DNA of 64,000 bases from an uncultured Nitrospirota bacterium (GCA_937139405.1 CAKZPV010000010.1:7864-71863), one strand, 5' to 3'; shown: positions 9,816-61,487, counted from the first letter of the stretch. The notes: generated by a model from the sequence alone, not told the origin. Translations and numbers: made by a program.

Positions 9816-11213
9816 ATGTTTCGAAAAATTCAGCACATTCATCTCGTTGGAATCGGTGGAAGTGGCATGAGCGGCATTGCGGAAGTGCTCCTGACGTTAG
9901 GGTATAAAGTCACGGGTTCTGATACGGGATATTCCGATAGTATTCGTCGGTTGGAAGGAATGGGGGGGACGGTGCATATCGGCCATCAGGAATCGCATGT
10001 TGAGGGCGCGCAAGTGGTTGTCATGTCGTCGGCTATTGCGACATCAAACCCAGAAATTCGTGCAGCACGAGCCAAAGTGATTCCAGTCATCCCACGTGCA
10101 GAGATGCTAGCCGAATTGATGCGCTTGAAATTTGGAATTGCCATTGCAGGGGCCCATGGCAAAACAACGACGACCTCCATGGTGGCGTCCATACTGGCTG
10201 AAGCCGGTCTTGATCCGACCTTTGTGGTAGGTGGGAAAGTGAATGCCATGGGGACGCATGCTCGTTTGGGGCGCAGTGATCTCCTCATTGCCGAAGCTGA
10301 TGAAAGTGATGGTTCGTTTTTGCGTTTGTCTCCTTCCATCGTGGTGGTGACTAATATGGACCGGGAGCATCTCGAGCATTATGGAAGCATGGAGCGACTG
10401 CAAGAAGCATTTTTGGAATTTATCAACAAAATTCCCTTCTATGGCGCCGCAATTTTGAGTGCAGATGATCCTTGGATTCGTGGGTTGTTGCCTGGAGTAG
10501 TGAAGCGTTATCAGACCTTTGGCATGAGTGATTTTTCTGGTGTCCTGACGCCAGATCTATTTGCGACGGATATTGAACCTAAAGCCTTAGGTATAGAGTT
10601 TCGCGCTCATTATCGAGGCCAAAAAATTGGGCCGTTTCGCATTCGCATCCCCGGTGTTCACAATGTGTCGAATGCGTTAGCCGCGATTGGCGTTGCGTTG
10701 GAGTTAGACGTGCCTGTGGATCTCATTCGATCGGGTCTAGCCGCGTTTTCTGGTGTGGAGCGCCGGTTTCAAATACGGGGTGAAAAAAACGGGATTATGG
10801 TCGTAGATGATTATGGCCATCACCCTACCGAAGTCCGTGCCACATTGGCCGCAGCACGAGCGACGTGGTCTCGACGTTTAGTGGTGGTCTTTCAACCTCA
10901 TCGATATTCTAGAACAAGGGATCTAGCTGATGATTTTGCCAAGGCATTTGAACAAGCTGACGTGATTTATGTTTTGGATATCTATGCCGCGGGGGAAAAC
11001 CCAATTCCTGGAATAAGTGGACAGACGTTGGTCGAAAAAATCAGTGGGTCTGGTCATTCTTCTGTTCATTGGGTCAACGGTGATCCTGGATTCGTGAGCC
11101 GGCTGCGAGATGATCTCCGAGAAGGCGATGTGTTGTTGACATTAGGTGCTGGAGATGTGTGGAAAATTGGGCAAGAACTTCTTGGAACGATAGGTGTAAA
11201 GCGTGAGGAGTGA
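9816..11213 (+). CDS. murC: UDP-MurNAc:L-Ala ligase
   Basis: GIGGSGMSGIA, GAHGKTTT, EADESD, DDYGHHPTE, FQPHRYSRT. Confidence 0.98.
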   Translation: MFRKIQHIHLVGIGGSGMSGIAEVLLTLGYKVTGSDTGYSDSIRRLEGMGGTVHIGHQESHVEGAQVVVMSSAIATSNPEIRAARAKVIPVIPRAEMLAELMRLKFGIAIAGAHGKTTTTSMVASILAEAGLDPTFVVGGKVNAMGTHARLGRSDLLIAEADESDGSFLRLSPSIVVVTNMDREHLEHYGSMERLQEAFLEFINKIPFYGAAILSADDPWIRGLLPGVVKRYQTFGMSDFSGVLTPDLFATDIEPKALGIEFRAHYRGQKIGPFRIRIPGVHNVSNALAAIGVALELDVPVDLIRSGLAAFSGVERRFQIRGEKNGIMVVDDYGHHPTEVRATLAAARATWSRRLVVVFQPHRYSRTRDLADDFAKAFEQADVIYVLDIYAAGENPIPGISGQTLVEKISGSGHSSVHWVNGDPGFVSRLRDDLREGDVLLTLGAGDVWKIGQELLGTIGVKREE

Positions 11214-11293
11214 ACAGGAAAAAGTGAGAAACAAGAAAAAACCTCTCAGTAATGATTGTCTCTCATGCTTTTGACTTTTTGTATTTCACTTTT
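11196..11293. repeat. Period-7 degenerate repeat arranged as an imperfect inverted repeat, overlapping the murC stop
   Basis: Heptamers gtaaagc/gtgagga/gtgaaca/ggaaaaa/gtgagaa/acaagaa (11196-11237); 11220-11237 pairs with 11276-11293 (15 Watson-Crick pairs, 2 G-T, 1 mismatch). Confidence 0.7.
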
Positions 11294-11313
11294 GAGGTGA
11301 ATGATATTGGGCT

Positions 11314-12246
11314 TTGGATGTCATGGTAGCAAGTCAGAGGCGCGTACCCTTTCTGTCTGTCCTTCGTCGAGCGCTACTTCAGGTGGAAGGAGAAATTCGA
11401 TGGCACGAACCTTTGGCCCCACATACGTCTCTCCAAATTGGAGGTCCAGCTGATGTTTTCGTAATTCCTTCAGATGTGGAGGATGTGATTCGTGTAGTAC
11501 AGGGCGCACGGATGAGTCGCATTCCACTTATGGTGTTGGGTGGAACGAACGTGGTTATTCGAGATAAGGGGATTCGAGGCATCGTAATGCAGTTGAAACA
11601 ATTGACAGAGATTCGTGAAGAACCCAACCAATTGGTGTATTCGCAAGCTGGTGTACGGTTACCACGACTGATGCAATTTGCCCTTGGCCGAAAATTGTCA
11701 GGTATGGAATGGGCCGCTGGAGTTCCAGGGACAGTAGGCGGTGGTGTGGCAATGAATGCGGGAACTCGTTTAGGGGAAATGCAGGATATTTTGCAAGCGA
11801 TTGATTTTGTCACTCTACATGGAATTCGGAAGCGCATAGAGGCTTCAACCGTTTCATTTCTGTATCGTAAGACGATGCTTCCGAAAGGCATTGTCGTGGG
11901 GGCTTGGATGCAATTGACGTCCGCAGCAAAAGATACAATTCAATCTGCCACGAAACAGTATCTGCAGTATCGCAAATCTACACAACCGTTGACTTTGCCA
12001 AATGCCGGATCGGTTTTTAAGAACCCCAGCGGAGATTCAGCTGGACGTTTGATTGAAGTGACAGGATTGAAAGGGTTGAGAGTCGGTGATGCTGAGGTTT
12101 CCACGAAACATGCAAATTTCATTGTGAACAGGGGAGCCGCAACAGCAGACCAGGTCCTTCGATTAGTCCGTAAGGTTCAAGATTCTGTTGCCATAAAATT
12201 TGGAGTCGCTTTGCAATTGGAATGGAAGGTGGTCGGGGAAAGATGA
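11314..12246 (+). CDS. murB: UDP-N-acetylenolpyruvoylglucosamine reductase
   Basis: IGGPAD, GVPGTVGG...MNAG, NAGSVFKNP, KHANFIVN. Confidence 0.96.
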   Translation: MDVMVASQRRVPFLSVLRRALLQVEGEIRWHEPLAPHTSLQIGGPADVFVIPSDVEDVIRVVQGARMSRIPLMVLGGTNVVIRDKGIRGIVMQLKQLTEIREEPNQLVYSQAGVRLPRLMQFALGRKLSGMEWAAGVPGTVGGGVAMNAGTRLGEMQDILQAIDFVTLHGIRKRIEASTVSFLYRKTMLPKGIVVGAWMQLTSAAKDTIQSATKQYLQYRKSTQPLTLPNAGSVFKNPSGDSAGRLIEVTGLKGLRVGDAEVSTKHANFIVNRGAATADQVLRLVRKVQDSVAIKFGVALQLEWKVVGER

Positions 12247-12265
12247 ATGCGGGGATTGCTGCACA

Positions 12266-12307
12266 GGGAAAAGCGAAAAAGAAGAATAGAGGCATCAGAA
12301 AGAAACC
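12266..12307 (+). repeat. Purine-rich degenerate heptamer run (single arm)
   Basis: gggaaaa/gcgaaaa/agaagaa/tagaggc/atcagaa/agaaacc. Confidence 0.35.
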
Positions 12308-12351
12308 ATAACACATGAGGTTTTGGAGGCCATGTTGAAAGCCAAGAAATC

Positions 12352-13314
12352 ATGAAGGCGAATTCTTTACGCGTTGGTGTACTCATGGGTGGAGCATCTG
12401 CTGAGCGAGAGATCTCCTTGAAGACGGGTCGGTCTATTTGCGAATCGTTACGGCGTTGCCGATACACGGTTGTTCCCATTGATGTGAATGCCATGCTGCC
12501 TCAACAACTTCGTATGAAAAAAATTTCAGTAGCCTTTTTAGCACTTCATGGAGTGGGCGGAGAGGATGGCACCGTGCAGGGGTTGTTGGAGGTGATGAAG
12601 ATTCCCTATACGGGTTCCGGTGTCTGTGCGAGTGCCGTGTGTATGGATAAAGGCTTGACACGCGTGATTCTTCAATCGGCGGGAATTCCTGTACCACCCG
12701 GCGAAACATTACAAGCTCCACTGGCCCCAACTCGTCCAGGCGGTAATTTGGGTTGGCCGGTTGTCGTCAAGCCTTGCACGGAAGGGTCGAGTTTTGGTGT
12801 GTCCATTGTGAAAGATTCTTCCGGATGGAGGAAAGCGGCGAAGAAAGCTTTTCGATATGGACGGCAAGTCGTTGTTGAAAAGTATATTCCCGGTCGTGAA
12901 GTGGCTATTGGGGTGTTGGGAAACACGACATTTCCTGGAGTCGAAGTGATTGCTCCAGGTGGATTTTATGATTTTAAGGCAAAATATGGGAAGGCGGCAA
13001 CGCGCTATCTTTGTCCCGCCCCGCTCACCTCGCGATTAGAGCGATTGCTGGGGGAATATAGTATCCAAGCCTATCAGGCTTTGGGATGTCGAGGTGCCGC
13101 TCGAGTTGATTTTCGGATTCATCCCAATGGACGTCCTTATGTTTTAGAGTTGAATACCATTCCTGGCATGACCGAGCGAAGCCTGTTACCAATGGCTGCG
13201 GCGCAACAAGGTATGACATATGATGCTTTGGTCCAAGCAATGTTACTGGCGGCGCTGCCAAAAGGCAGGCGACGCTCAGGGGAATCGAAGAACGTGAACA
13301 AGGGAAAGATGTAA
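12352..13314 (+). CDS. ddl: D-alanine--D-alanine ligase
   Basis: GGASAEREISL, LHGVGGEDG, GSSFGV, RVDF, ELNTIPGMT. Confidence 0.97.
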   Translation: MKANSLRVGVLMGGASAEREISLKTGRSICESLRRCRYTVVPIDVNAMLPQQLRMKKISVAFLALHGVGGEDGTVQGLLEVMKIPYTGSGVCASAVCMDKGLTRVILQSAGIPVPPGETLQAPLAPTRPGGNLGWPVVVKPCTEGSSFGVSIVKDSSGWRKAAKKAFRYGRQVVVEKYIPGREVAIGVLGNTTFPGVEVIAPGGFYDFKAKYGKAATRYLCPAPLTSRLERLLGEYSIQAYQALGCRGAARVDFRIHPNGRPYVLELNTIPGMTERSLLPMAAAQQGMTYDALVQAMLLAALPKGRRRSGESKNVNKGKM

Positions 13315-14135
13315 TGGGTTTTGGCGAACTATTTTCCTCAAATCACCCTCGAAAAAATCGGCCTCACAAACGTGGAGAGTCTTTTGGGAAGAAAACACAA
13401 TTACGCAAAAAGTCTCCTACTCGGCGTGTGGTATTGGGGAGTCTTCTGGCTTGTCTGATTGTTTTGGTCATGATTGGTGGGCGCTCAGCAGTGCGATCAC
13501 TGAATGAATGGACAGTGATTCAACAACTTACGGTTGTCGGCTTAGATCGAATTTCGCGAGAAGAAATCATGTTGAAGCTTGATCTATCCCCGGATTCGAG
13601 TTTGTGGTCCATCGACACGGATCACCTCTCAGGTCAGTTAGAAGCGCATCCCTGGATTCGCTCGGTTACCTTTGATCGAGTCATCCCCCATTCCCTGGTT
13701 ATTGAGGTTGAAGAACGTCGACCGGCAGCGCTCTTACGAGCTTCGAAACAATCCTATTTTCTCGATGCGGAAGGATATTTGTTGCCTGGAGAAGTCACCA
13801 AGGCAAGTCAATCGTTGCCGGTACTCGAAGGGATGACATCAAAATTTTTTTCGCAGCAAAAGGATGAAAGCCATCGGCGGGCCAAACAAGGCATTCATTT
13901 AGCGGAAAAACTGGCTGAACATTTTTCAGGACGGCCCCAAGTGAATGTGTCTCATGCCCATACAACGATTGTGAATTTTCCTCGTATTCGGGTGCAATTC
14001 GGGCAAGAACCTGAACGCCAATGGGAACGATTTTTGGTCTTGTACCCAACACTCAAAGATTCAATTGAACGACGATCACAAGAAGTGGATTTGAGATTTT
14101 CTCAAAAAGTCATCCTTCGCAAGAGGACACTCTAA
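13314..14135 (+). CDS. ftsQ: Cell division protein FtsQ/DivIB
   Basis: Basic N-tail, single TM, POTRA-like segment (LEAHPWIRSV...EVEERRP), DLRF; lies between ddl and ftsA. Confidence 0.88.
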   Translation: MGFGELFSSNHPRKNRPHKRGESFGKKTQLRKKSPTRRVVLGSLLACLIVLVMIGGRSAVRSLNEWTVIQQLTVVGLDRISREEIMLKLDLSPDSSLWSIDTDHLSGQLEAHPWIRSVTFDRVIPHSLVIEVEERRPAALLRASKQSYFLDAEGYLLPGEVTKASQSLPVLEGMTSKFFSQQKDESHRRAKQGIHLAEKLAEHFSGRPQVNVSHAHTTIVNFPRIRVQFGQEPERQWERFLVLYPTLKDSIERRSQEVDLRFSQKVILRKRTL

Positions 14136-14138
14136 GCC

Positions 14139-15392
14139 ATGACAAAAAAAGAACACATTGTGGTAGGGCTAGACATTGGAACGACGAAAATTTGTGCAGT
14201 TGTTGGTGAAATTTTGTCTGATCGTTCCGTCAACGTCATTGGAATCGGATCCCATCGTTCGACCGGATTACGCAAAGGTATGGTAGTCAACATGGATAGT
14301 ACGGTGGAATCCATTAAGCGAGCCGTAGAAGAAGCGGAATTGATGGCAGCCGTCCAGATCAATTCTGTCTATACGGGGATTGCAGGCAGTCATATTGGCA
14401 GTGAAAGTGCGCAAGGGGTGGTGGCGTTGAAGAAGCGAGAAGTCACCAAGAGCGATGTCCGACGTGCGGTCGATACGGCTCGTGGTTGTGCTGTGCCTCC
14501 TCCGGATCGACAGATTTTACATGTTCTTCCGCGAGAATTCATTGTAGATGATCAAGAGGGCATCCGAGACCCCTTAGGTATCGCTGGATCACGTCTGGAG
14601 GTAGATGTCCATATTGTCACGGGTGCGGTGACCTCTGCTCAAAATCTTGCGCGATGTGTAAGCCGCGCAGGATTAGATGTTGTAGATATTGTCTTGCAGC
14701 CCCTAGCGTCGAGTGCCGCCGTGCTCTCACCAGAAGAGCGAGAGTTGGGTGTGGTGATGGTCGATATTGGAGGAGGGACCACCGATGTCGCTATTTGGGT
14801 GGAGGGATGCATTCGGCATTCAGCCGTGATCCCTATGGGTGGACATCATTTGACTTCAGATCTTGCAATTGGCTTACGGACCGCTCCAGAAGATGCTGAA
14901 AAAATAAAATTGCAATATGGTGTGGCGAGTAGTCAATTATTAAATGATGATGAAAATATTGAGGTACCGAGTGTGGGAGGGCGACCGCCACGGGTGATGC
15001 CAAGAAACATCGTGGCACAAATTCTCTCTCCTCGTGTAGAAGAAATGTTCGATATGGTGCGTCGCGAAATTCGTCGAGCGGGATATGACGGAATGCTGGT
15101 GGCAGGTGGTGTCTTAACGGGAGGGACTTCATTGTTACCAGGGATGCCTGAGGTGGCCGAGCAGGTGCTTAATTTGTCGGTGCGGTTGGGACGTCCATTG
15201 GGTGTCGGGGGGTTGAAAGATATTGTGCAAAACCCTATGTATTCCACGGCGGTCGGCTTAATCGTGCATTCCGTGAGTCAGGAGAACGAATTCGAAGTGG
15301 TGGGGGCTGGAGGAAGTAAGTCGAAAAAGCCTTCGCGCTGGGTGGGAGGAATGGTGTTTAAGATGAAGGGTTGGGTCATGAACTTTTTTTAA
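14139..15392 (+). CDS. ftsA: Cell division protein FtsA
   Basis: LDIGTTKIC, VDIGGGTTD, VLTGGTS, C-terminal amphipathic helix. Confidence 0.97.
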   Translation: MTKKEHIVVGLDIGTTKICAVVGEILSDRSVNVIGIGSHRSTGLRKGMVVNMDSTVESIKRAVEEAELMAAVQINSVYTGIAGSHIGSESAQGVVALKKREVTKSDVRRAVDTARGCAVPPPDRQILHVLPREFIVDDQEGIRDPLGIAGSRLEVDVHIVTGAVTSAQNLARCVSRAGLDVVDIVLQPLASSAAVLSPEERELGVVMVDIGGGTTDVAIWVEGCIRHSAVIPMGGHHLTSDLAIGLRTAPEDAEKIKLQYGVASSQLLNDDENIEVPSVGGRPPRVMPRNIVAQILSPRVEEMFDMVRREIRRAGYDGMLVAGGVLTGGTSLLPGMPEVAEQVLNLSVRLGRPLGVGGLKDIVQNPMYSTAVGLIVHSVSQENEFEVVGAGGSKSKKPSRWVGGMVFKMKGWVMNFF

Positions 15393-15478
15393 CCCATGGA
15401 GGGAAAGGAGAAGTCGGCATCCATGCCCCCTTTACAAATGGAATGGAAATAACAATGAGAATTATTTGTCACATCAGT

Positions 15479-15508
15479 CTGCCAGCATTATGGCAGGAAG
15501 GAGGTTCC
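15479..15508 (+). promoter_or_regulatory. 6-bp hairpin abutting a strong RBS of ftsZ
   Basis: ctgcca-gcatta-tggcag (15479-15496) followed by GAAGGAGG. Confidence 0.4.
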
Positions 15509-15509
15509 C

Positions 15510-16730
15510 ATGTTTTCACTTTCTGATGATGAATTATCTGCGATTAACATTAAGGTCGTCGGTGTTGGTGGTGCAGGCTGCAATGCTGTCAATACGATGA
15601 TTGAATCTGGCTTGAGTCGTGTGGAGTTTGCGGTCGCCAATACGGACTTGCAAGCGCTGGGACGTTCCATGGCTTCCTACAAAATCCAATTGGGCCCTGA
15701 GCGTGCGAGAGGTTTAGGTGCTGGTGCACGGCCGGAAGTCGGCAAAGAGTCAGCCATGGAAAGCGAGAACCAAATTCGTGATGCGTTAGAAGGAGCGGAT
15801 ATGGTGTTTGTCACGGCTGGAATGGGTGGTGGCACCGGTACCGGTGCGGCCCCAGTTGCAGCGAAGATTGCTCGTGAACTAGGAATTCTCACCGTGGGCG
15901 TGGTGACCAAGCCTTTTCAGTATGAAGGAAATCGTCGGGCCAGCTTTGCTGAAGAAGGTATTCGCGAATTAAAAAAACATGTGGATTCGCTGTTGATTAT
16001 CCCCAATCAAAAACTACTAGGGTTAGTGGATAAAAATACGCCCCTGTTAGAAGCGTTTAAGATTGCCGATGATGTGCTGCGTCAAGCGATTCAAGGCATT
16101 TCAGATGTGATTACCACTCCGGGTTTAGTCAATGTCGACTTTGCAGATGTTCGGACCGTGATGGGCTATTCCGGTCGGGCGGTAATGGGTATGGGTGTGG
16201 GACATGGGCCGACGCGAGCCGAAGAAGCGGCGAAGCTGGCCATTGCGAGTCCATTGCTAGAAGACGGCAGCGTAGAAGGGGCTCGAGGCCTCTTGCTGAA
16301 CATTACGGGTGGACCAAGTATGACGTTGCATGAAGTGAACGAAGCTTGCAATATCGCACGAGATGCGGCTGATCCACAGGCCAATATTATTGTCGGCCAA
16401 GTGATCAACCCAGAGATGGGCGAAGAATTGACTGTGACCGTGATTGCCACTGGGTTTGAACAGGCGGAATCAGTTTTGCGGTTCCCGAGTGCCCATCAGC
16501 CGACACTCGTAGTGGAACCAGTGAAGGCGCCAAGCTTGGTCTCGGTGAGTGGAGATCATCACGACGACAATGGTGTGGATGAGATGGATCGTCCAACGTA
16601 TTTGCGCCGGCAGGCTGCAGCACGGAAGGCCACTGAAAACGGGCATGGCAACGGGAATGGAAATGGGAGTTTGCTCGTGGATGATGATTGGGATGTTCCG
16701 ACATTCTTGCGGAAAAAATCCGATAGCTAA
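15510..16730 (+). CDS. ftsZ: Cell division protein FtsZ
   Basis: [18 protein letters not shown] tubulin signature, NVDFADV, C-terminal DVPTFLRK. Confidence 0.99.
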
Positions 16731-16759
16731 AGTTTAGACACAAGAACGGATTTAGAAGG

Positions 16760-17509
16760 TTGGTACCTGTGCACCCTGTGATGTCTAAAAACGGATTCAC
16801 GAGTGCCGTGATTCCCATTCCTCATTTCTTTGGTACACGTCAAGTGCCGGAAGGGTTTCAGACTTCGATTCAATTAGGGGAAGTGACCACTGGGCCTCCA
16901 TCATTTCCCTTTATTGCCAACTTAAAACAAATCCATAGTACCCGGGTTGTTATATTCGACAGCCCGGTCAAGACCGGAGTGATACCGGAGGGTGAAGGGG
17001 ACGCGTTAGTTACTAATCAACCACAATTATTATTGGTCGTTCGGACGGCTGATTGTGTTCCCGTATTGTTGATTGATCACAACACTAGAGTTGTTGGAGC
17101 GATTCATGCAGGTTGGCGAGGAGCCGTTGGCGGTATCGTCCCTAAGACCATTCAAGCGTGCGTAGAACATTTTGGTTCAGATGTGGCTCATATGCATGTG
17201 GCCATTGGTCCGTCGATTGGCCCCTGTTGTTATGAAGTTGATGCCCAAGTCATTGAGCCTTTGAAAATCGGCTATCCTGATTGGCTGGGAGTGCTTCAGG
17301 AAACGACAGCAGAGAAGGGCATGTTGGATCTCAAAAAACTCATCTGGCATCAAAGCCTTGCGAGTGGGATTCCAGAACAACAAGTCGATCGAATGGAGCA
17401 TTGTACGTATTGTCGTGACGACCTATTTTTTTCCTACCGTCGAGAGGGTCAAGTTAATGGAACGATGATGACTGGGGTGATGCTGCCAGGAGACAAAGGT
17501 CGAAATTAG
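16760..17509 (+). CDS. pgeF: Peptidoglycan editing factor PgeF (YfiH/YlmD family)
   Basis: QIHS, GDALVT, TADCVP, IHAGWRG, CCYEV, FFSYRR; follows ftsZ. Confidence 0.93.
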   Translation: MVPVHPVMSKNGFTSAVIPIPHFFGTRQVPEGFQTSIQLGEVTTGPPSFPFIANLKQIHSTRVVIFDSPVKTGVIPEGEGDALVTNQPQLLLVVRTADCVPVLLIDHNTRVVGAIHAGWRGAVGGIVPKTIQACVEHFGSDVAHMHVAIGPSIGPCCYEVDAQVIEPLKIGYPDWLGVLQETTAEKGMLDLKKLIWHQSLASGIPEQQVDRMEHCTYCRDDLFFSYRREGQVNGTMMTGVMLPGDKGRN

Positions 17510-17577
17510 AAGTCAAGAAGTAGAAGAAACCCTTAAGCGTTCGCCTCAGACTTTCTAAATTTCTTACTCCACTAACC
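17504..17577. repeat. Weak purine-run/pyrimidine-run inverted repeat at the pgeF stop
   Basis: aattagaagtcaagaagtagaag followed by cctcagactttctaaatttcttactccactaac; pairing is imperfect. Confidence 0.3.
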
Positions 17578-17619
17578 TCTTCCTGTGACTTAAGAGCCAA
17601 TCCTGTTTAGAATATATCT

Positions 17620-18342
17620 GTGTCGTCGTTTGATGAATCATCTGTTTCTGTAGATATTGCTAGCAATGTACAGAGTATTCGGCTCGGCATACGACAGGCC
17701 GCTCTTCGGGCAGGCCGAGACCCTTCCTCTATTCAATTCGTGGCGGCAACGAAGACAGTCGCACCTAGTGTGCTCGTTGAAGCCTATAGAGTAGGAGTGC
17801 GAATATTCGGAGAAAATCGCCTTCAAGAAGCCCAAGAAAAAATGCCGAACATTGGCCTACGTCAGGGACTAGCCTGGCATTTTATTGGCCGAATGCAAAG
17901 TCGAAAGCTGAAAGACATTGTGGGGAAATTTTCTTTGCTTCACTCCGTGGAAAGTGTAGAGCAAGCACATAGAATTGACACGGCTGCAGAAAAATTGGGA
18001 ATTCAACAGGATATTCTTCTTGAGGTCAATGTGGCCGGGGAGGGCACCAAAGGAGGATTTTCCTGCAAGGAAATGAAAGAAGCGATAGATCAGGTTGATC
18101 GGCTTCCACATGTTGCCATCCGAGGTTTGATGACTATTCCTCCGTTTAGCGACAATCCAGGGGGGACCAGACCCTATTTTTCGGAATTACGCCAATTGCG
18201 GGATTCCCTGGCACAACAGCGTCTCATTCATGGAGGAGTTGAGGAATTGTCCATGGGTATGTCTCATGACTATCAGGTTGCGATTGAGGAGGGGGCCACG
18301 ATGGTGCGGATTGGGACGGCTCTCTTTGGCAAGCGGGGGTAA
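17620..18342 (+). CDS. yggS: PLP homeostasis protein (YggS family)
   Basis: VAATK, FGENRLQE, WHFIG, LSMGMSHDY, VRIGTALFG. Confidence 0.96.
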   Translation: MSSFDESSVSVDIASNVQSIRLGIRQAALRAGRDPSSIQFVAATKTVAPSVLVEAYRVGVRIFGENRLQEAQEKMPNIGLRQGLAWHFIGRMQSRKLKDIVGKFSLLHSVESVEQAHRIDTAAEKLGIQQDILLEVNVAGEGTKGGFSCKEMKEAIDQVDRLPHVAIRGLMTIPPFSDNPGGTRPYFSELRQLRDSLAQQRLIHGGVEELSMGMSHDYQVAIEEGATMVRIGTALFGKRG

Positions 18343-18391
18343 TTTCAAGGTGTACAAGAGGAAAGTTATTGAGAAATAACAAAGGAGCGTC

Positions 18392-18691
18392 ATGTTTATT
18401 GCTGGAAATGTGTTAGAAGGTATCGCCACGATTTTAGATACAGTGCTATGGTTATATATGTGGGTGATCATTGTTCGAGCATTAATTTCCTGGGTGAATC
18501 CGGATCCGTACAACCCCATTGTGCAATTTTTGCAGCGGGTCACCGATCCGGTTCTGTATCAAATTCGGAAGCGATTGGGGATGGGAAGCATGGGGTTTGA
18601 TTTTTCTCCAATCATTGCTATCCTACTAATTATGTTTCTACAAATTGCTGTGGTAGGATCTTTGAAAGACGTAGCGATTCGTTTGCACTAA
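18392..18691 (+). CDS. yggT: YggT family membrane protein
   Basis: SWVNPDPYNPIVQFL..VTDP, DFSPI. Confidence 0.93.
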   Translation: MFIAGNVLEGIATILDTVLWLYMWVIIVRALISWVNPDPYNPIVQFLQRVTDPVLYQIRKRLGMGSMGFDFSPIIAILLIMFLQIAVVGSLKDVAIRLH

Positions 18692-18715
18692 GGAGTGCCG
18701 AGAAAGGGTCATGAT

Positions 18716-19264
18716 ATGAAAATTACGCCGTTAGATATTCAACATAAAGTGCTGGATACGCAGTGGCGAGGTTATCACAAAACTCAAGTCGATCAGTTTT
18801 TAGAAGAGATTGCCGAGTCGGTCGAAGAACTCACCAAAGAAAATATTGTACTCAAGGAAAAATTATCGGGGAAAGATGAAGAGCTCGGGCAGTTGAAGCG
18901 AGCCGAATCTACTTTGACTAGCACGCTAATTTCCACACAATCTTTCGTGGACCAATTAAAGCGTGGTGCGCAACGTGATGCAGATCTTGTCGTGAAAGAA
19001 GCTGAATTGAAAGCGGAGGAGATATTGTCTCAAAGTCGTGCTGAGCTCGTCGAAATGCGGCGAACAATATCTGGCTTACGGCAACAACGTGCGTTGGTGT
19101 TGGATCGTCTTCGTTCCACATTGAGCTCTTTTCATCGCTTGGTTGAGGTAGAAGAAGAGCCAGATACTGCTCTTGATTCTTCGATTGAAGAGCCAGAAGA
19201 ACCGGCAGATTCAGAAGGTCCACAATTGAATATCGAGCCCACCCCTCATCGAGAAGCGGGATAA
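18716..19264 (+). CDS. divIVA: DivIVA domain protein
   Basis: ATG at 18716: MKITPLDIQHK..RGY....VDQFL, then coiled coil and acidic tail. Confidence 0.9.
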   Translation: MKITPLDIQHKVLDTQWRGYHKTQVDQFLEEIAESVEELTKENIVLKEKLSGKDEELGQLKRAESTLTSTLISTQSFVDQLKRGAQRDADLVVKEAELKAEEILSQSRAELVEMRRTISGLRQQRALVLDRLRSTLSSFHRLVEVEEEPDTALDSSIEEPEEPADSEGPQLNIEPTPHREAG

Positions 19265-19286
19265 CCGTTTTCTGTACCCATGATTT

Positions 19287-20375
19287 GTGGATCAGACTGA
19301 TCCTATTACACGTATACTTCGTGAAGGAATTCAATCTAACGTATTCCCTGGGGCTGTGCTATTTGCCCGTCACAAGGGTCAAATACGATTTCATCAATCC
19401 ATAGGTCTCACATCAGGTCTTCCCGATTCCCCTTCCGTCTGCATCGACACCATTTACGATTTAGCTTCTCTGACAAAACCCCTCGTAACGGCTTCTTCTA
19501 TTCTTTTCCTTATTCAGGAGGGACGTTTAGGTCTTTCCCAACTATTGGGAACGCTTTTAGAAGAGACTAAACGCTTTCCCTTAGGACAGGTTTCCTTGCG
19601 AGACTTGTTGTCTCATCAGAGTGGACTCCCAGCTTGGCGTCCGTTCTATCAATCTTTTACTCCTGTTCTTTTTTCTGAACCAAGATTTTTGAAAAAAAGA
19701 AATCAAGTCGTGCTGGAGATGATTCTGAATGAGCCAATTGTGCAATCGTCATCGAAAACCAATGTGTACAGCGATTTGGGGTATATGGTGTTGGGATTTG
19801 TTATTGAACGAATGACCGGGCAATCACTCGCAGTGTATTCTCAAGAGCGAATCTTTGCTCTTTTGCAGGCAAACGAACTTTTTTTCGGCAATCAAAATGT
19901 TAGGGGGAATCGGTCACTCAAGATTGCGCCTACAGAAGAAGATCCCTGGAGAGCGCGGTTGTTGCAAGGGGAAGTGCATGATGAAAATGCTGCGGCACTT
20001 GGAGGAATTGCCGGACATGCAGGCTTATTTGGAACAGCACAGGCAGTAGGGCATGTGACCAAAGCTTGGCTGAATAGTTACTTAGGCCACCCAAGTATCT
20101 TCAGTCAAGACTTAGTCAGACAATTTGTACAAGCTCAATTTGGAACAAGTTGGGGGCTGGGCTGGGACACTCCCTCGCAACCCTCTTCTTCTGGTCAATG
20201 GTTTTCACGGGAATCATTTGGACATTTAGGGTTTACCGGAACTTCGATTTGGATTGATCCTATCCGAGAATTAGAAGTGATTTTCCTGTCGAACCGTGTA
20301 CATCCAACACGAGACAATCAAACTATCAAAGCCTTTCGGCCAAAACTGCATGATGCGATTATTCATGAACTCTGA
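19287..20375 (+). CDS. Serine hydrolase (beta-lactamase/class C-like family)
   Basis: DLASLTK (SxxK), YSDLGY, GHAGLF, FGHLGFTGT. Confidence 0.9.
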   Translation: MDQTDPITRILREGIQSNVFPGAVLFARHKGQIRFHQSIGLTSGLPDSPSVCIDTIYDLASLTKPLVTASSILFLIQEGRLGLSQLLGTLLEETKRFPLGQVSLRDLLSHQSGLPAWRPFYQSFTPVLFSEPRFLKKRNQVVLEMILNEPIVQSSSKTNVYSDLGYMVLGFVIERMTGQSLAVYSQERIFALLQANELFFGNQNVRGNRSLKIAPTEEDPWRARLLQGEVHDENAAALGGIAGHAGLFGTAQAVGHVTKAWLNSYLGHPSIFSQDLVRQFVQAQFGTSWGLGWDTPSQPSSSGQWFSRESFGHLGFTGTSIWIDPIRELEVIFLSNRVHPTRDNQTIKAFRPKLHDAIIHEL

Positions 20376-20461
20376 AGATCCATTTCAGAAGAGGATTCTC
20401 GCGTTACAAAATCTTTCCAAGAATAGCATCTTCGGTTGTTTAGAGTGCAAAGAAGGGGTAG

Positions 20462-20492
20462 TTGTCAATAATGAGAATTGTATTAATATAAT
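20462..20492 (+). promoter_or_regulatory. Putative sigma70 promoter for the CsgG-like/caspase genes
   Basis: TTGTCA at 20462; TAATAT at 20484 (spacer 16) or TATAAT at 20487 (spacer 19). Confidence 0.3.
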
Positions 20493-20687
20493 CTTTTGAT
20501 TAGAATTCTTGAATGGGTCACATACCTCTGTTATCTGCTCGGGGTAATTATAATGAGAACTCCTAACTATTGATTTGTTGAATCCCCTACTAGTTGCGGC
20601 GCGGGATTTTGATAAGCCTTCGGTCGACACAGTTGCCCTTTCTAGAAAACGTTTCCTTTCACCCCTTTCTGTTATTGGAGAACCAAA

Positions 20688-21482
20688 ATGAGTAAACGGA
20701 TTTCAACCCCCAAATCGTTAATTCTTTGTGGATGTGTATTATTTTTACTCCAACCCGCCTGCGAGTCGGTTAAATCAAATGTATCTAGCTTAACAGGGGG
20801 AAATGAAGAAGCGGAGTACGAAGAAACTGATATTCCCATGAAACCTGTTCCTCAACTGAATGATGCGTATAGGGGGAAAGCAATAGTGGTGTCGTCTTTT
20901 GCTGAAAAGGACTTACGAAGCATATACAGTCGATATAGTTATTTGCGGGGCTGGTTAGGAAGCGCATCGACTGAATATGCCGTGCAGTTTTTAGCCGAGG
21001 CGGGTTTTGACGTTCTGGAAGGGCAAGGTGGCCAATTAAGTGAAGTGTTCGAGGAATTGGAATTGCAACAAAGTGGAGCTGTTGATTCGTCTCAAGCCGT
21101 CGAGATGGGGGAGATGGGCGCAGCGAGTTTAATTTTTGTCGGAGCTATTACAGATTTTACTCAGGTGGATAATCGAAAGAAAAATGATGTGTGCCTGCCA
21201 GGTATGGGATGTGTGGGTTTGGGGGGGGGCAAGCTTCAGTATGAAGTTGAAACAAGTGGGAGAATAATTGATATCAAAACCCGAAAAATTGTGGTTTCTG
21301 ACACAGCGTCCTTTAAGAAAATTTATAAGGATAGTAGTTTTAATGCCAAGGTGGCTGGATATAAGGTGGGTTCAGAAGAAGATAATCGGGTAAAGCGAGA
21401 AGCCAGCGGGAAAATCTTTAGGAAGGCTCTCAATTCTCTAGCGATCAAATTAGTGAACAAGCTTAATAGGAAAGCCAAGTAA
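20688..21482 (+). CDS. CsgG/HfaB family probable lipoprotein
   Basis: Signal-like N-terminus ending LLQPAC; FDVLE..LSEVFEELELQQSGAVD..AVEMG..GAASLIFVGAITDF matches the CsgG/HfaB pattern. Confidence 0.8.
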   Translation: MSKRISTPKSLILCGCVLFLLQPACESVKSNVSSLTGGNEEAEYEETDIPMKPVPQLNDAYRGKAIVVSSFAEKDLRSIYSRYSYLRGWLGSASTEYAVQFLAEAGFDVLEGQGGQLSEVFEELELQQSGAVDSSQAVEMGEMGAASLIFVGAITDFTQVDNRKKNDVCLPGMGCVGLGGGKLQYEVETSGRIIDIKTRKIVVSDTASFKKIYKDSSFNAKVAGYKVGSEEDNRVKREASGKIFRKALNSLAIKLVNKLNRKAK

Positions 21483-21613
21483 ATTCAGTGAACGTGCATT
21501 TTGGTTTCTAGAATACATCAATTGCGAACAGTCGGCTTGTACGTTTTCCCAGGAGAAAGAGCTTTCCTCCATTTGAAAAGCCCTTTCATTTGAGAGAGTC
21601 TTATGGTGTTAAC

Positions 21614-23152
21614 ATGAATAAATTGTTCAAAATCTTTGGTCTATGCATTTTTCTGCATGGCATTGTGTCTGTTGGGTGGCACGGTGACAGTATGGCTCAA
21701 GAAAAAAAAGCATCCTGGCAATCTTCATTGGTAAGGGAAATGGGTACTGCTGGGGCGATAGTCCCAACTGCGAAGTCTTTTCAGCATTCGTTGAAAAGTT
21801 TTGATATTGCTTTTGCAAAGGAATCTCCCTCGAAACGAGGTATTCAAGTAGAAGCAAATGTGAAACTACATGAAGAAAGCGTGAAGAGGTCTATCGGGAA
21901 ACGTTGGGGGGTGGTTATAGGTATTAATGACTATCAACGAGTTCCTGGATTGAATTATGCCGTCAATGATGCCAGAGCAGTAGGGCATAAATTAAATAAT
22001 TTGGGTTTTGATGAAGTTATTTTGTTAGAGAATGACCAGGCGACTAAAGCTAGTATTGAAGGGACCTTAAATGGATTAGCAAATAAAGTTGGTTTAGATG
22101 ATACCGTCGTGGTCTTTTTTGCTGGGCATGGGAATACTCTCGAAATGCCGAATGGCAGTCGGATGGGATATTGGGTTCCATTCGATGGAAATATGGAACA
22201 GGGGATTGCGACGGGCATTTCTATGGATACGATTCGGTTACTTTCACAAGCGATCCCCGCTCGGTACCTTCTTTATCTTATTGATGCATGCTATTCAGGA
22301 CTGGCTCTTCGTCAAATGTGGCCGGGAGATGGTGCCAACGGATTTGTTCGACAAATTATAACTGCGGGACGCAGCGGTGAGGAAGTGGTAGAGATCGACG
22401 GGCATGGCGTTTTTACTAATCTATTGTTACGGGCTTTTGATGGGGCAGCTGATGCAAACCGAGATGGTCAAATGACCGTCAGTGAATTAGGTGTCTATTT
22501 ACAATCTGAGGTGTCGAGGCAATCTCAGCGCGAGCAGAATCCTTTATTTGGGAGATGGGCGGGAGAGGAGGAGCTAACTTTTCGAGTTCCACATTTCGTG
22601 GATGAGCCAACGAGCTTGGCGGTAAGCCCAAAGCCTATTGCTGCTGAACCTCAAAGAACGATGAAGGACGAGAGCTCTTCGGCCCGAGTATTGGTCATGA
22701 TCCCTGAGACCTTAGACCATATTCCTGTTCGCTCACCACGAGCAGAGGGCATTATTATGCAAAAACTTATTGAAGGCGGGCTTGTGGTTATTGATCAAGA
22801 GCAAATTGATGAAATTCGCAATCCAGATGAAATAAAAAAGTTTTTGCAATCCGGAACCCGCAAACAGGCTCGATGGCTTGGGAAGCAATTTGGTGCACAT
22901 ATGGTGGTCATCGGGGAAGCTATAGGACAAACTTTTTATCCCAATATCGCAGGAAGTCGGTTTATTTCGACGGATGTACAGTTATTAGCCAAAATTATTT
23001 CGGTCAAAACAGGAAATGTCATTGATACTTTAAGTGTTGAAGGAAAGGGAATCGGAAAATCTCCTTTGATTTCTGGGAAAAAAGGCTTTGAGAAAGCTGG
23101 AAAGAAAATGAGTAAATTAATCTTGGAAAAAAGCAAAAATTTTCTTCGTTAA
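21614..23152 (+). CDS. Exported caspase-family (peptidase C14) protein with C-terminal CsgG/FlgT/TolB-N-like domain
   Basis: ATG at 21614 (MNKLFK); VVIGINDY, AVNDA, FFAGHG, LIDACYSG, GHGVFT, DANRDGQMTVSEL; C-terminal VIDQEQID..GKQFGAHMVVIGE..AKIISVKTG. Confidence 0.82.
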   Translation: MNKLFKIFGLCIFLHGIVSVGWHGDSMAQEKKASWQSSLVREMGTAGAIVPTAKSFQHSLKSFDIAFAKESPSKRGIQVEANVKLHEESVKRSIGKRWGVVIGINDYQRVPGLNYAVNDARAVGHKLNNLGFDEVILLENDQATKASIEGTLNGLANKVGLDDTVVVFFAGHGNTLEMPNGSRMGYWVPFDGNMEQGIATGISMDTIRLLSQAIPARYLLYLIDACYSGLALRQMWPGDGANGFVRQIITAGRSGEEVVEIDGHGVFTNLLLRAFDGAADANRDGQMTVSELGVYLQSEVSRQSQREQNPLFGRWAGEEELTFRVPHFVDEPTSLAVSPKPIAAEPQRTMKDESSSARVLVMIPETLDHIPVRSPRAEGIIMQKLIEGGLVVIDQEQIDEIRNPDEIKKFLQSGTRKQARWLGKQFGAHMVVIGEAIGQTFYPNIAGSRFISTDVQLLAKIISVKTGNVIDTLSVEGKGIGKSPLISGKKGFEKAGKKMSKLILEKSKNFLR

Positions 23153-23894: not shown

Positions 23895-24008
23895 AGGTGT
23901 TAGCTCCAGGTAGACAGAGGCTGAACAATTTTTTGTGGAATGCACAATAATAGATTACGGCCTTCGCGGAAAGGATTATAGGCTGCTCTGAAATGGGCTG
24001 CAAGCCTG

Positions 24009-24038
24009 TTGACTTGTGTCAGAAACGGCACGTACTCT
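24009..24038 (+). promoter_or_regulatory. Putative sigma70 promoter upstream of pgsA-pilBTC
   Basis: TTGACT-N18-TACTCT. Confidence 0.3.
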
Positions 24039-24065
24039 TGACTATTCCTAGGACAAACTACGGTA

Positions 24066-46473: not shown

Positions 46474-46480
46474 AAAAACC

Positions 46481-46529: not shown

Positions 46530-46541
46530 GCATGTGTTTAG

Positions 46542-46954: not shown

Positions 46955-49900
46955 ATGTTTGAGAATAAGAATTCAGCCGTCATCTGGTTTTTAGGGAAAT
47001 GGCGGAGCAGTTTGGTCTTCCGTATTTCCACCAATTTGACCTTCTCTATAGGTCTGTTGGTATTAGTTGGTGCGGTCTTGATCGGCTATGGTCAACGCGA
47101 ATTACTGCTAGAGGCGTTTCGCGATCGGGGAGTTGCAGTGGCCCGAACTTTTTCCACGGTAGGGGCTGCTGCCATATTGGATAATTTGTTTCGCATTCAA
47201 GAGTCTATGTCAGCCTATGCTGAAGATGATGATCTAAAAGTCTTAGAAGTTCTGGACGAAGACAATATGATCATCGCTTCCATTCGACCGACTACAATTG
47301 GAACGATGGTGGAAGACCCACAGTTGAAGAACGCGCAGAAGATGGGCTCAGAATTACACATGTTTGTGGATACCACTGATGGCGGGACGATGTTTGTGGT
47401 GATCGAGCCCTTGTTGAATGAGGACGAAATCGTCGCGTGGGTCCGTATCGGATTTTCGCTCAATCGTCTTCAGGAACAAGAACGGGAATTGCGGATCGGG
47501 CTAATGATCATGTCGGTCGTCTTTATTGGACTTGCAATTTTTGGAGTAAGAAAAGGAATTTTTCAGATCTTGCCAATTTTAGAGGAACTGATTGAGAAAC
47601 TCCAAGCGGTGGCTCAAGTCACCGAAGGGAACGTCCTCCACAGTACTGAGGGGTTTCATAAACGAGACATAGACTCCAAAGACGGAGAGGTGGAGCAATT
47701 GGTAGGCGTGGCCACACAAGCGGCTAGCTTATTGGAATATCGGACCAAAGCCCTCAAGCGGCTCATGGTGAGCCAAGAAATAAAAAATCGAGAATTTGCC
47801 CGTTTGGCGTCATTTCCAGAAATGAATCCCAATCCGGTCATCGAAATGGATTTTCAGCAGTGCATTTCGTATATCAATCCCTCGGCAAACCGAATGTTCC
47901 CTGAGTTAGCTCAGCTGGGCCTTGGTCACCCTCTCTTCATACAAGTGGCAGATTCATTGGAATGCATTATTTCCAGGAAGGAGAAGACGGTCCTTCAAGA
48001 AGTGACTGAGTCTGATCGTATCTTTGAAATACGGATGACCTTGGTGGAATCTAGTCAGGTGTTGCGGCTGTATTTGCATGAAGTGACGCAGCGAAAATTG
48101 GCAGAGGATCAAGTTCGGCAGGCAGTACGAGAGCTAGAAATCAGCAATCAGGAGTTGGCGCTATCTCGTGACGGTGCTTTGAGTGCTGCGAAAGCCAAGA
48201 CCGATTTTTTAGCGACGATGAGCCATGAAATCCGAACTCCCATGAATGGCGTCATTGGCATGACAGGACTGCTTTTGGATACATCGTTGACTCCTGAGCA
48301 GCGGAAGATGACGGAGATTGTGCAGATTTCTGGTGAATCGTTGTTGACGATTATTAATGATATTTTAGACTTTTCAAAAATTGAGTCGGGAAAGTTGGAG
48401 TTAGAGAATATTCCCTTGAATGCTCAGTCTTGTGTGGAGGAAGTATTGGATCTATTGGCCGGGCACGCCAACGCCAAGAATCTTGAATTGACAAGTTGGG
48501 TTTTCCCTAATGTTACGACGGATTTGTTGGGGGATCCTGGGCGGTTTCGTCAGGTCATGATGAATTTAGTGGGGAACGCCATTAAATTCACGGAAATAGG
48601 AGAAGTGTCAGTTCAAGTCTTATTAGAAGATGAAACCGAGGATGACGTGGTGTTGCAAGTCAAAGTCATCGATACAGGCGTGGGAGTGTCACCAGAGCAG
48701 CAAGCCAAGTTATTTCAGGCGTTTACTCAAGCGGATAGTTCCACGACTCGAAAATTTGGAGGAACAGGGTTGGGTTTGGCGATCTGCAAACAGTTGGTAG
48801 AGCATATGGATGGGACCATTGGAGTTATCAGTGAGGATGGGGAAGGCAGTTGTTTTTGGTTTCGCATACGTCTTGATAAAGCGCATAGCGATCAACCGAC
48901 TTGCCTCACAGATCAACCCCTGGCTGGAATCAAGTTGTGTTGTGTCGATGATAATGAGACAAATCGCATGGTGCTTTACCAATATGCGCAGACGTGGGGA
49001 GTCGAAGTGGAGGTTGCAGAAGGAGGCCATCAAGCTTTAGCCCTTCTTCGAGAGAGTCATGCCCAAGGTAAGCCCTTTGATATGGTCCTTATCGATATGA
49101 GCATGCCCGAAATGAATGGAACGAAACTGGCCAAGGTGATTAAAAATGATTCTGAGCTGTCGAATCTGAAATTAGTATTACTCACGTCTGCTGGTTTTCG
49201 TGGAGATGATAAAAAGGCACAACAAATAGGTTTTGATGCCTATCTATCCAAACCAATTCGTAAAAAAGATCTCCAAGTGTGTCTGGCAATGATTATGGGT
49301 CGACATGATATGTTCGTTCCCCCGCTTTCTGACGGGGCGCTTGGAAGTCCAATCAATTCGGAGCAAAGGGCTCGAGTTGGCCATATCCTTGTGGTCGATG
49401 ATCATGTGGTGAATCAACAACTTGCAGAAATGATGCTGCTCCGTTTAGGTCATCAGGTTGATCTGGTGGGCAATGGGCTTGAAGCGATAGAAGTCATAGG
49501 GCGTATTCGGTATGACTTGGTATTGATGGATTGCCAAATGCCAGAAATGGATGGGTATGACGCGACAAAAAAGATTCGTGAAATAGAAAGCATGAACTGT
49601 GAAGCGTTAGACGTAAAGGGTGAATCGAATGAAGAATGTTTTACTGACGTTTTACGCCTCAGACCTGAGGGCACGCTTCGCGTGCCGATTGTGGCTATGA
49701 CGGCCAATGCAATGCAGGGTGATCGAGAAAAATGTTTGGCAGTTGGTATGGACGATTACATCAGTAAGCCCATCAAATCAGAGGATTTAGCTGAAATAGT
49801 GAACAAATGGTTGCACGCGAAAGGTACTGCTGAAGGGACAGATGAGCCCAAAGTGGAACCAACATCGCGGATCGATGCCCATTCTTTGGTTCCTGTTCAG

Positions 49901-50272
49901 GTGGAGGCGGCGGAACCGCTGCTCTCCCCACAATTGGTTGCTGACTGGAGAATAGCCGGAGGCAGTGCCTTTGTCTCGAAATTAGTGAGTCAATTCGTTT
50001 CGGATGCCACGGCCAGTGTCGAAAAAATTCAGGCGGCCTTAGAATCGGAAAACGCCAACGAAGTGCTTGAAGCGGCGCATGGCTTGAAGGGGATGTCCGC
50101 GAATATGGGGCTCACAGAGTTAGTCAGAGCGGCCCATCACATGGAAACTCTGGGCCGGCATTACAATCTTCAAGATGGCTCTTCTGTTTTTGATTCAGTG
50201 CAGAAGGAGTTTGCTCGTGTCCATGAAGCACTTCAAGATGTGCTAGAGCAAGAAGAACTCTCTTCTAAATAA
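46955..50272 (+). CDS. Hybrid sensor histidine kinase (TM-periplasmic sensor-TM-PAS-like-HisKA-HATPase-REC-REC-Hpt)
   Basis: [37 protein letters not shown], two REC domains (LIDMSMP; LMDCQMP), AAHGLKGMS. Confidence 0.95.
49599..49661. repeat. Heptamer inverted-repeat element in frame within the second REC domain
   Basis: gtgaagc/gttagac/gtaaagg/gtgaatc; 49600-49614 pairs with 49647-49661 (12 Watson-Crick pairs, 1 G-T, 2 mismatches). Confidence 0.7.
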
Positions 50273-60114: not shown

Positions 60115-60133
60115 TTAAGACAAGGAGGATTGG

Positions 60134-60430
60134 ATGACAAAAGCGGACCTCATCGAGAAGTTGGCGGAAAAGGCTCCCCAATTAAGTCGACGACAAGCCG
60201 AGATGGTCGTCAACACCATTTTTGATTCAATCCGGGATTCGTTGAAGCGCGGTGAAAAGACTGAAATTCGGGGATTTGGGAGTTTTCGTCTGCGTCATCG
60301 TCAAACTAAAGAGGGGCGTAATCCAAAAACAGGAGAATCAGTTTCTGTTCCAGAAAAACGTATGCCATTTTTTAAAGCGGGCAAAGAAATAAAAGAATTA
60401 CTCAATCCTGAGGAAAAAGTCGCATCGTGA
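60134..60430 (+). CDS. ihfB: Integration host factor beta / HU family protein
   Basis: MTKADLI, EIRGFGSF, GRNPKTG, PFFKAGK; follows rpsA-sppA. Confidence 0.9.
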   Translation: MTKADLIEKLAEKAPQLSRRQAEMVVNTIFDSIRDSLKRGEKTEIRGFGSFRLRHRQTKEGRNPKTGESVSVPEKRMPFFKAGKEIKELLNPEEKVAS

Positions 60431-60433
60431 CTT

Positions 60434-61420
60434 ATGTCAGACTCTGAACCATCGCCGACGGTACAAGACATTCCCTGGACTCAGGATGCGCTCACACGAC
60501 TTGAGCGGGCTCCTAGTTTCTTGAGAGGAATGGTCCGTCGGTTAGCCGATAAAAAAGCCAAAGAACTTGGCTTTGCCGAAATTACCGTTGATATTTTGGA
60601 TCAATTCAAAAGCCAAATGATGGGACAAATGGGTGGGGAGGCCGGAATGTCTCAGGCTGCCGATGATATGGCTGCCGGCAAGCTACCATGGACGGCCGAA
60701 GCAAGGAAACGACTAGAATCCATTCCCGAGTTCATGCGAAGTATGATTGCGAATATTGCCGAAGATGTAGCGAAAGAGCGTGGCCATATGGAGGTCAATG
60801 TTGAATTGTTTGAAAAGGTCGAAGCCTTAGGTGATCTGCAAGAGCAGATAGGTCTTCCCTTAGAATGGACAGAAGAAGCCTTGGCGCTTTTGCAGCAAAA
60901 AATAGAACATTCTCCTCCGATGGCGAAGGAATTCGTCGCCGATATGTTGAAGCATGATGCGGAGGATCTTGCCCGTGAACAAGGAATTACGTGCATGGAT
61001 GCTGAGTCTCTGCTTCGTCTGTGGGAAGCCCCTCAATCACAAGTGGCGTGGGCTGATGATGCATGGAAACGACTTCAAACCTCTCCAGATTTTGTCCGGA
61101 GCGGGATTCGAAAAGCAGCCGAACGTCGAGCGAGGAAGCTCGGACTGAAAGAAATTGATTCGGAACATCTGACGGTGTTTCGAAATGAAGCCATGATGAA
61201 AGCGGTCAAACGCATTCGAGCCTTTGGATATAAAGAACTCACGTTTGATGCCTTTGATGATGCGCTCGGCAAGGTCAAACGGCTCAAGGGTAATGACCAA
61301 GCTGAACACCGATTAGAAGAAATTCGGGATTATATGAAAACGAAGCCTGATGTTGGGGTGCTCGGTGAGGAACTGATGGGGCGCTTCCGAAGCTATTTAA
61401 AAGGGGAGGGGAAATTATAA
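60434..61420 (+). CDS. Protein of tandem PCP_red (BchB/ChlB C-terminal-like) domains
   Basis: Four repeats of W(T/A)xxA..(R)L...P.F.R....E..A...G..EI. Confidence 0.78.
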   Translation: MSDSEPSPTVQDIPWTQDALTRLERAPSFLRGMVRRLADKKAKELGFAEITVDILDQFKSQMMGQMGGEAGMSQAADDMAAGKLPWTAEARKRLESIPEFMRSMIANIAEDVAKERGHMEVNVELFEKVEALGDLQEQIGLPLEWTEEALALLQQKIEHSPPMAKEFVADMLKHDAEDLAREQGITCMDAESLLRLWEAPQSQVAWADDAWKRLQTSPDFVRSGIRKAAERRARKLGLKEIDSEHLTVFRNEAMMKAVKRIRAFGYKELTFDAFDDALGKVKRLKGNDQAEHRLEEIRDYMKTKPDVGVLGEELMGRFRSYLKGEGKL

Positions 61421-61445
61421 GAGCGGAAGCTCTCTGACATTGAAT

Positions 61446-61487
61446 TTTTTGCATTCTGCCATTTTTCTTTCTTTTTTCTTTTCTAAC
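61446..61487 (-). repeat. Degenerate heptamer run starting at the RNase H stop
   Basis: Minus strand reads gttagaa/aagaaaa/aagaaag/aaaaatg/gcagaat/gcaaaaa. Confidence 0.35.

Follow-up and report, generated by a model that had tools for sequence, protein, structure and literature searches.

Decades of reports on tandem repeats of seven nucleotides, from cyanobacteria, Xanthomonas and Beggiatoaceae, have yielded no mechanism for them. In heterocystous cyanobacteria, the short tandemly repeated repetitive (STRR) sequences have the consensus CCCCAGT, TTGGTCA or CAACAGT. Heptamers were also described in the 23S rRNA intervening sequence (IVS) of Coxiella, where (GACAGAT)2-3 is present in variable copy number before the S23p open reading frame (ORF) (PMC4990558). 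The corresponding family, PF05635, is very common and functionally uncharacterised; it comprises four-helix bundles, is named '23S rRNA intervening-sequence protein' and is related to Avd of the diversity-generating retroelements (DGR). The present analysis concerns heptamer arrays with the consensus GT[GA]A[GA][GA]A (GTRARRA) in a 64,000-nucleotide window from an uncultured Nitrospirota bacterium (GCA_937139405.1 CAKZPV010000010.1:7864-71863; positions are counted from the first letter of this stretch), which lies within a 4.46-Mb Nitrospirales metagenome-assembled genome (MAG) of 46% G+C. These arrays belong to a real, lineage-wide class of repeats of a known but unexplained kind, and what is unusual in them is their tie to PF05635 and the presence of in-frame copies in receiver (REC) domains.

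The arrays are best read, with a probability of roughly 0.55, as the arms of gene-less, heptamer-armed hairpin elements, the same arms enclosing a PF05635 gene in related genomes. An earlier note on this DNA had placed arrays at four main loci, and all four proved to be real:

11196-11230, plus strand: purine arm of five units (GTAAAGC GTGAGGA GTGAACA GGAAAAA GTGAGAA), chain score 21.0
11255-11293, plus strand: degenerate pyrimidine arm, partner of the 11196 arm; fold -28.6 kcal/mol, z -2.1
27601-27643, plus strand: purine arm, GTGAGGA followed by an 8-mer and by GTGAAAA GTAAAAA GTGAGGA GTAAAAG; scored part 27616-27643, chain score 19.5
27688-27709, minus strand: pyrimidine arm, reading GTAAAAA GTAAGAA on the minus strand; array 27695-27708, score 10.5
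46481-46529, plus strand: purine arm of seven units, chain score 24.2
46955-50272, plus strand: gene for a hybrid histidine kinase, host of the in-frame copy
49599-49626, plus strand: in-frame purine arm of four units (GTGAAGC GTTAGAC GTAAAGG GTGAATC) in the receiver domain, score 10.3
49638-49660, plus strand: in-frame pyrimidine arm (GTTTTAC TGAC GTTTTAC GCCTCAG), partner of 49598-49618

The first purine arm provides the stop codon of murC (TGA, 11211-11213), and its partner ends directly 5' of the murB ribosome-binding site. The 27601 arm begins 19 nt past the stop at 27582, and a 16-bp stem is formed between its positions 27622-27637 and the pyrimidine arm downstream. For the 46481 arm, which begins 8 nt past the stop at 46473, most of the pyrimidine partner is absent and the stem is weak (fold z -1.3). 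Within the kinase gene, the stem has 18 bp and a folding energy of -22.2 kcal/mol (z -3.0). Clear stems are thus present at 27601, 49599 and 11196; the earlier note had described a purine arm followed by a complementary pyrimidine arm in three cases. The units reported as common to several loci (GTGAGGA, GTGAAAA, GTAAAAA and GGAAAAA) were found to recur. The weaker runs listed at 12266, 17504, 46717, 50435 and 61446 are on the contrary background, with a score of at most 5.4 on either strand and folding no better than that of shuffles (z -0.96 to +1.0). At 17504-17575, a purine-rich stretch is followed by a pyrimidine-rich one (AGAAGTCAAGAAGTAGAAGAAAC ... TTTCTTACTCCACTAACCTCTTCC) past the stop at 17509; with its background score and its folding at the level of shuffles, it could be a worn-out element.

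Arrays were detected by a chain scan with a position weight matrix (PWM), used in place of Tandem Repeats Finder (TRF), which reported 0 of the 4 real window arrays because their units are degenerate. Genomes simulated with a 5th-order Markov model served as chance controls. The strict pattern (GT[GA]ANNN)>=3 has 18 matches in the genome against 0-3 in the simulated ones. PWM chains with a score of at least 12 number 33 against 0, and those with a score of at least 8 number 125 against 40-55, from which about 50-80 true arrays can be estimated. Core heptamers are preferentially spaced by 7, 14 and 21 nt (46, 34 and 36 occurrences, against about 12). Over the whole genome, GTRARRA arrays are thus in large excess over the Markov controls.

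Arm complementarity also goes beyond chance. The 120 nt downstream of an array pair better with it than the 120 nt upstream in 50 of 61 arrays (Wilcoxon, p=2e-7), and pairing with the upstream 120 nt stays at the level of random DNA. Where two arrays lie within 200 nt of each other in this genome, the purine arm comes before the pyrimidine arm in 11 of 11 pairs, with gaps of 25-63 nt, and the reverse order in 0 of 11. The resulting layout, 5'-(GTRARRA)n, a loop of 25-63 nt and (TYYTYAC)n-3', is identical when read from either strand. Every heptamer unit contains TGA or TAA, so that three units stop all three reading frames. In an all-against-all BLAST comparison, the copies resemble each other only in heptamer runs of 15-27 nt and their loops are unrelated; they are therefore not copies of a miniature inverted-repeat transposable element (MITE).

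Location was analysed over the arrays with a score of at least 10 (n=62). Most of them (49/62) are intergenic, and divergent spacers contain 1 array against 10.6 expected (p=0.003). On the sense strand, the median distance from the upstream stop codon to the start of the purine arm is 5 nt (Kolmogorov-Smirnov, 5.5e-6), as had been noted from the window, and some of these arms, such as the one after murC, supply the stop codon themselves. One contig, C33, is dense in arrays (21 of the 125 within 289 kb, most of them at 158-227 kb); cheA lies in this stretch (C33:192616), as does a second CheA-like match (C33:212470).

In sister species, the arms surround a gene. The spacer between cheY and cheA contains a cassette with the order cheY stop, purine arm, loop, pyrimidine arm, PF05635 ORF, pyrimidine arm and cheA, which was found in G034 (OZ244988.1), G022, G003, G013, G007, G016 and G029. 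The ORF matches Pfam PF05635 with an E value of 4e-42 as well as NCBIfam TIGR02436, and it is distantly Avd-like; among solved structures, the Nitrospirales protein is closest to X. campestris XCC0516 (PDB 2GSC). Roughly half of the genus has one copy of PF05635, located between cheY and cheA. In G028, G256 and G316, which belong to other genera, the PF05635 ORF is bracketed by arrays according to their coordinates, and the family is present in 159 of the 301 Nitrospirota genomes sampled. Two PF05635 subtypes seem to be associated with different units, one with GTGAGGC and the other with GTGAGAA/GTAAGGA. In two of the cassette genomes (L186 in G016, L194 in G029), the PF05635 ORF continues through the downstream pyrimidine arm, and the read-through tail (...ALRLTLHE...) resembles the REC-loop peptide encoded by the same arm.

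In the genome of the window, no PF05635 gene was found (best tblastn E value 0.44) and all array copies are gene-less. Its cheY-cheA spacer has 45 nt (C33:192560-192615, outside the window) and ends in three pyrimidine-arm units, CTATTCAC TTCTGAC CATTCAC, followed by GAGGCAAAGCATG; the cassettes of G013 and G022 end in the same way on their 3' side, GAGGCAAAGCATG included. The three-unit remnant is the footprint of a deletion of the PF05635 cassette, which makes the genome a natural knock-out for PF05635.

Array numbers follow the gene in two families. Within the genus, an intact PF05635 is present in 10 of 15 array-rich genomes and in 2 of 22 array-poor ones (p=7e-4); when only genomes at least 90% complete are considered, these counts become 6 of 7 and 1 of 15. 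In the sister family, the copy number of PF05635 correlates with that of arrays (rho 0.62, p=2e-6); there, each of the 13 array-rich genomes has two copies or more. With PF05635 present, degraded or deleted within one genus, and with array numbers that follow it, the link can be tested directly.

The second unusual feature is the in-frame hairpin, which occurs in four hybrid kinases of this genome, in the loop between alpha3 and beta4 of the REC domain. In the kinase of the window, the insert follows KKIREIE. Orthologues and paralogues in the genus share the loop, with a conserved peptide KELGVRSEEQ...TPDSLLLTPH, and the in-frame copy is found in paralogues across the order. The unit that lies in the stop frame has TTA in place of TRA. 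Other genera have the same loop in their genome's own flavour, for example CGTGAAG CGTTAAA CGTGAAG ... GCTTCAC GCTTCAC. A hand-set 17-bp stem in the REC loops is 77% paired, against 31-43% when it is slid. The conserved codons at the start of the loop, ATT CGT GAA GC, include one unit, GTGAAGC, and are plausibly the seed of the loop repeat. These copies offer an example of repeat DNA turning into protein sequence. Two further observations were made in REC loops. In the sister family, the arms are in the opposite order at L158 (G156), L159 (G326) and L176 (G156), reading GTTTCAG GTTTCAA ... CTGAAAC TTGAAAC, an order never taken by the intergenic pairs of the present genome. At L164 (G247), the loop is built from another heptamer, (CCCTCGC)4, with GGCGAGR units upstream; this suggests that heptamer flavours vary among genomes.

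Beyond the genus, GTRARRN arrays were found across the phylum in many Nitrospirales genera and in a few other families. Strict matches range from 0 to 103 per genome within the genus. The GTRA core is constant across families and the remaining positions differ (GTGAAAC, GTAAGAA). In one family of the phylum, f14, many genomes have far more matches to the backwards control than to the query, which suggests a different heptamer family there. The idea that Nitrospirota harbor a lineage-wide heptamer class analogous to STRR is thus supported. The literature searched held no description of this class, nothing on Nitrospira heptamers and nothing on a link between PF05635 and heptamers.

In this account, the arms that enclose the PF05635 gene in the cheY-cheA spacer of sister species also exist as gene-less copies, which occupy spacers right after stop codons and, in one lineage, the REC loop in frame. 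The elements stay at one site across species and their units turn over in place, as seen at the orthologous sites described below; the turnover would occur by slippage, with the arms remaining complementary. Genomes with an intact PF05635 gene are array-rich. The present genome has deleted its PF05635 gene, leaving the three-unit footprint, and its roughly 50-80 arrays are for that reason orphans. For function and mechanism, we infer that the PF05635 protein may bind the repeats, maintain them or spread them. Once transcribed, the stems would resemble rRNA intervening sequences in their behaviour, forming long double-stranded RNA with imperfect pairing that RNase III could attack, and they may also act as three-frame translation stops between cistrons.

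Several points weigh against this account. The statistics that associate PF05635 with arrays are uncorrected for phylogeny, and because the genus has one conserved PF05635 locus, shared ancestry could yield the association. In the multi-copy family, arrays flanking each copy of the gene inflate the correlation. Arrays exist without a PF05635 gene in G200 and G208; conversely, G188, G265, G294 and G318 have at least two copies of the gene but at most one array. G030, G033 and G011 are array-rich and have no PF05635, though these genomes are just 73-81% complete. In the genome studied here, 33 strong arrays coexist with the absence of PF05635, and the protein is therefore unnecessary for their persistence. 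The REC stem shows no covariation beyond column make-up, and RNAalifold found no consensus on the REC loops. Finally, no folding advantage of the sense strand was observed with G-U asymmetry as a proxy, the sense strand folding better in 11 of 24 cases.

The alternative that survives best, unlikely though it is a serious candidate, is that the arrays are plain simple-sequence repeats (SSR) of the STRR type, that is, runs produced by slippage, with an inverted partner arising by template switching, no dedicated protein and PF05635 as a chance occupant of the spacer. Comparison of orthologous sites speaks for it, as units turn over there at fixed positions. The murC-murB spacer has an element in the window, in L002 and in L007, the units differing each time; in L001 and others, including one genome whose MurC is equally close (95%), it is precisely empty. 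At the 27601 and 46481 sites, sister genomes have a full, short or degenerate element or none, between flanking genes that are 73-82% identical; at the latter, a four-unit array forming a tight hairpin is present in G064 and a degenerate array in G061, whereas G063 and G065 lack one. From these three sites it follows that elements persist in place and are remodelled there, and perfect tandem runs are found in relatives, such as (GTGAGAA)5. Arrays that lengthen and shorten in place, as slippage would make them do, fit both observations; slippage was one of the routes of spread that had been suggested earlier. Xanthomonas likewise has an excess of heptamer SSR with length variation at the same site (PMC4692102). 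Arrays endure in the present genome without PF05635, and plausible seeds exist, namely a stop codon joined to a Shine-Dalgarno (SD) sequence (TAAGGAG) and the REC codons mentioned above. Other findings speak against it. Period 7 in general is not enriched in this genome, the excess being limited to the GTRARRA family; the GTRA core is held constant across the families of the phylum as other positions drift; array number follows PF05635 in two families; and the pyrimidine arm strictly follows the purine arm (11 to 0).

The 46481 site shows a further change. At 46473-46955, in the interval that separates the kinase from the gene with its stop at 46473, the window lacks about 3.8 kb that G061, G063 and G064 have:

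46515-46530, no strand: left junction of this deletion against the sister genomes, located where the array ends

In G061, the missing segment contains one convergent ORF, two whole ORFs and the greater part of a fourth. What the window keeps of this fourth gene, a 3' remnant of 62 codons (46530-46730), is directly joined to the 46481 array, and the junction has GTG... microhomology. A deletion adjacent to an array is a hint that the elements also destabilise their surroundings.

Selected stem-loops acting at the RNA level between cistrons are quite improbable as an explanation. They would stabilise mRNA, act in attenuation or termination, or serve as a dock for an RNA-binding protein with a 7-nt footprint, for example one with a cold-shock domain; such a footprint, with one CspB protein per heptamer, was proposed for the TAACTGA repeats (PMC4679880). 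The position right after stop codons, the depletion in promoter-only spacers and the retention of some hairpin at orthologous sites would be expected of such stem-loops. Folding is nevertheless symmetric between sense and antisense, and since the sense strand has no advantage, an mRNA-level role, including the stabilising one put forward in the earlier note, is unsupported here. Termination, also put forward there, fares no better: a short GC-rich stem with a U tract, as in intrinsic terminators, was not seen at any element within 10000-29999. The Rfam search of the window returned a single tRNA, with no family match at the elements at the gathering score. Counts of 0 to about 100 per genome within one genus are unlike an essential regulatory device, and sites can be precisely empty. 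Mimicry of SD and anti-SD sequences was considered as well, GGAG units being SD-like and the pyrimidine arm resembling the tail of 16S rRNA; it was dropped because GTGAAAA and GTAAAAA are frequent among the units, other genera have GTGAAAC and there is no strand bias.

Mobilisation by a transposase, as in repetitive extragenic palindromic (REP) sequences and their hairpin-forming doublets (REPIN), moved by REP-associated tyrosine transposases (RAYT, of the Y1 type) or another enzyme, or as in MITEs, is largely refuted already and very improbable: hairpin repeats in spacers, three Y1_Tnp genes in the genome and the presence or absence of the murC-murB element, with a single possible but ambiguous TAGG duplication, would suit it, but the Y1 genes have no flanking arrays, their count is unrelated to that of arrays (rho 0.15, p=0.37), copies cannot be aligned outside the heptamer runs, let alone from end to end with terminal inverted repeats and target-site duplications, and pairs of arms 0.2-6 kb apart, the expected autonomous parents, are in no excess (7 vs 9).

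Rickettsia palindromic elements (RPE) are likewise palindromic and inserted in frame in protein-coding genes, in surface loops. RPE are however alignable copies of 100-150 bp in many unrelated genes, whereas here one loop of one family of kinase paralogues is concerned, which is inherited, remodelled and heptamer-built, with TTA in the unit of the stop frame. The arrays also share features with the STRR and the TAACTGA repeats of Beggiatoaceae (PMC4679880), which are lineage-specific heptamer direct repeats, mainly intergenic, with one motif family per lineage; TAACTGA units carry stop codons, as GTRARRA units do. TAACTGA repeats closely precede start codons and, with the exception of one indirect repeat, are direct. 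Unlike them and the STRR, the Nitrospirales units have degenerate purine positions, are paired in hairpins and follow stop codons, and both the consensus, GT[GA]A[GA][GA]A, and the host order differ from those of STRR.

The GGGAATC repeats of Xanthomonas (Rehm et al. 2015, PMC4692102) are, with the protein-coding rRNA IVS, the closest counterparts. In both Xanthomonas and Nitrospirales, the repeats are tandem heptamers, mainly intergenic, very often arranged as convergent pairs of arrays on opposite strands that are capable of forming stem-loops, and retained at the same gene boundaries of sister species in varying length and sequence, as at the murC-murB, 27601 and 46481 sites. The tandem 7-nt units, in at least two to three copies, and the single motif family per genome that characterize heptamer inverted repeats are found here. 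Xanthomonas units contain a G-tract and form G-quadruplexes, whereas the units here are purine-rich, include a stop codon and have no tracts of three or more G. No in-frame REC copies were reported there and no link to PF05635 was drawn. The Xanthomonas genome known for GGGAATC inverted pairs is also the source of XCC0516.

In the 23S rRNA IVS with S23p/PF05635 of Coxiella, Leptospira and Salmonella, the flanks form a long stem around the PF05635 ORF, as in the relatives of the present genome; here, the copies are mostly gene-less and occupy spacers of mRNA and a single coding loop. None of the copies located is an insertion in 23S helix 25 or 45, the rRNA genes of this genome not having been examined. 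With REPIN-RAYT systems, the arrays have in common a single, vertically inherited gene flanked by the repeat and dispersed hairpins that are abundant when the gene is present. The protein is here a four-helix bundle instead of a Y1 transposase, the copies are not near-identical, and the repeats neither flank a Y1 gene nor track its presence. We propose, tentatively and with the odds against it, that PF05635 four-helix-bundle proteins might be trans-acting partners of heptamer hairpins. Such a partnership would follow the logic of REPIN-RAYT with a protein that is not a transposase, would cover the rRNA IVS and the STRR-type, Xanthomonas and Nitrospirales repeats, and would leave the REC loop as a copy that was co-opted and remodelled with the flavour of its genome.

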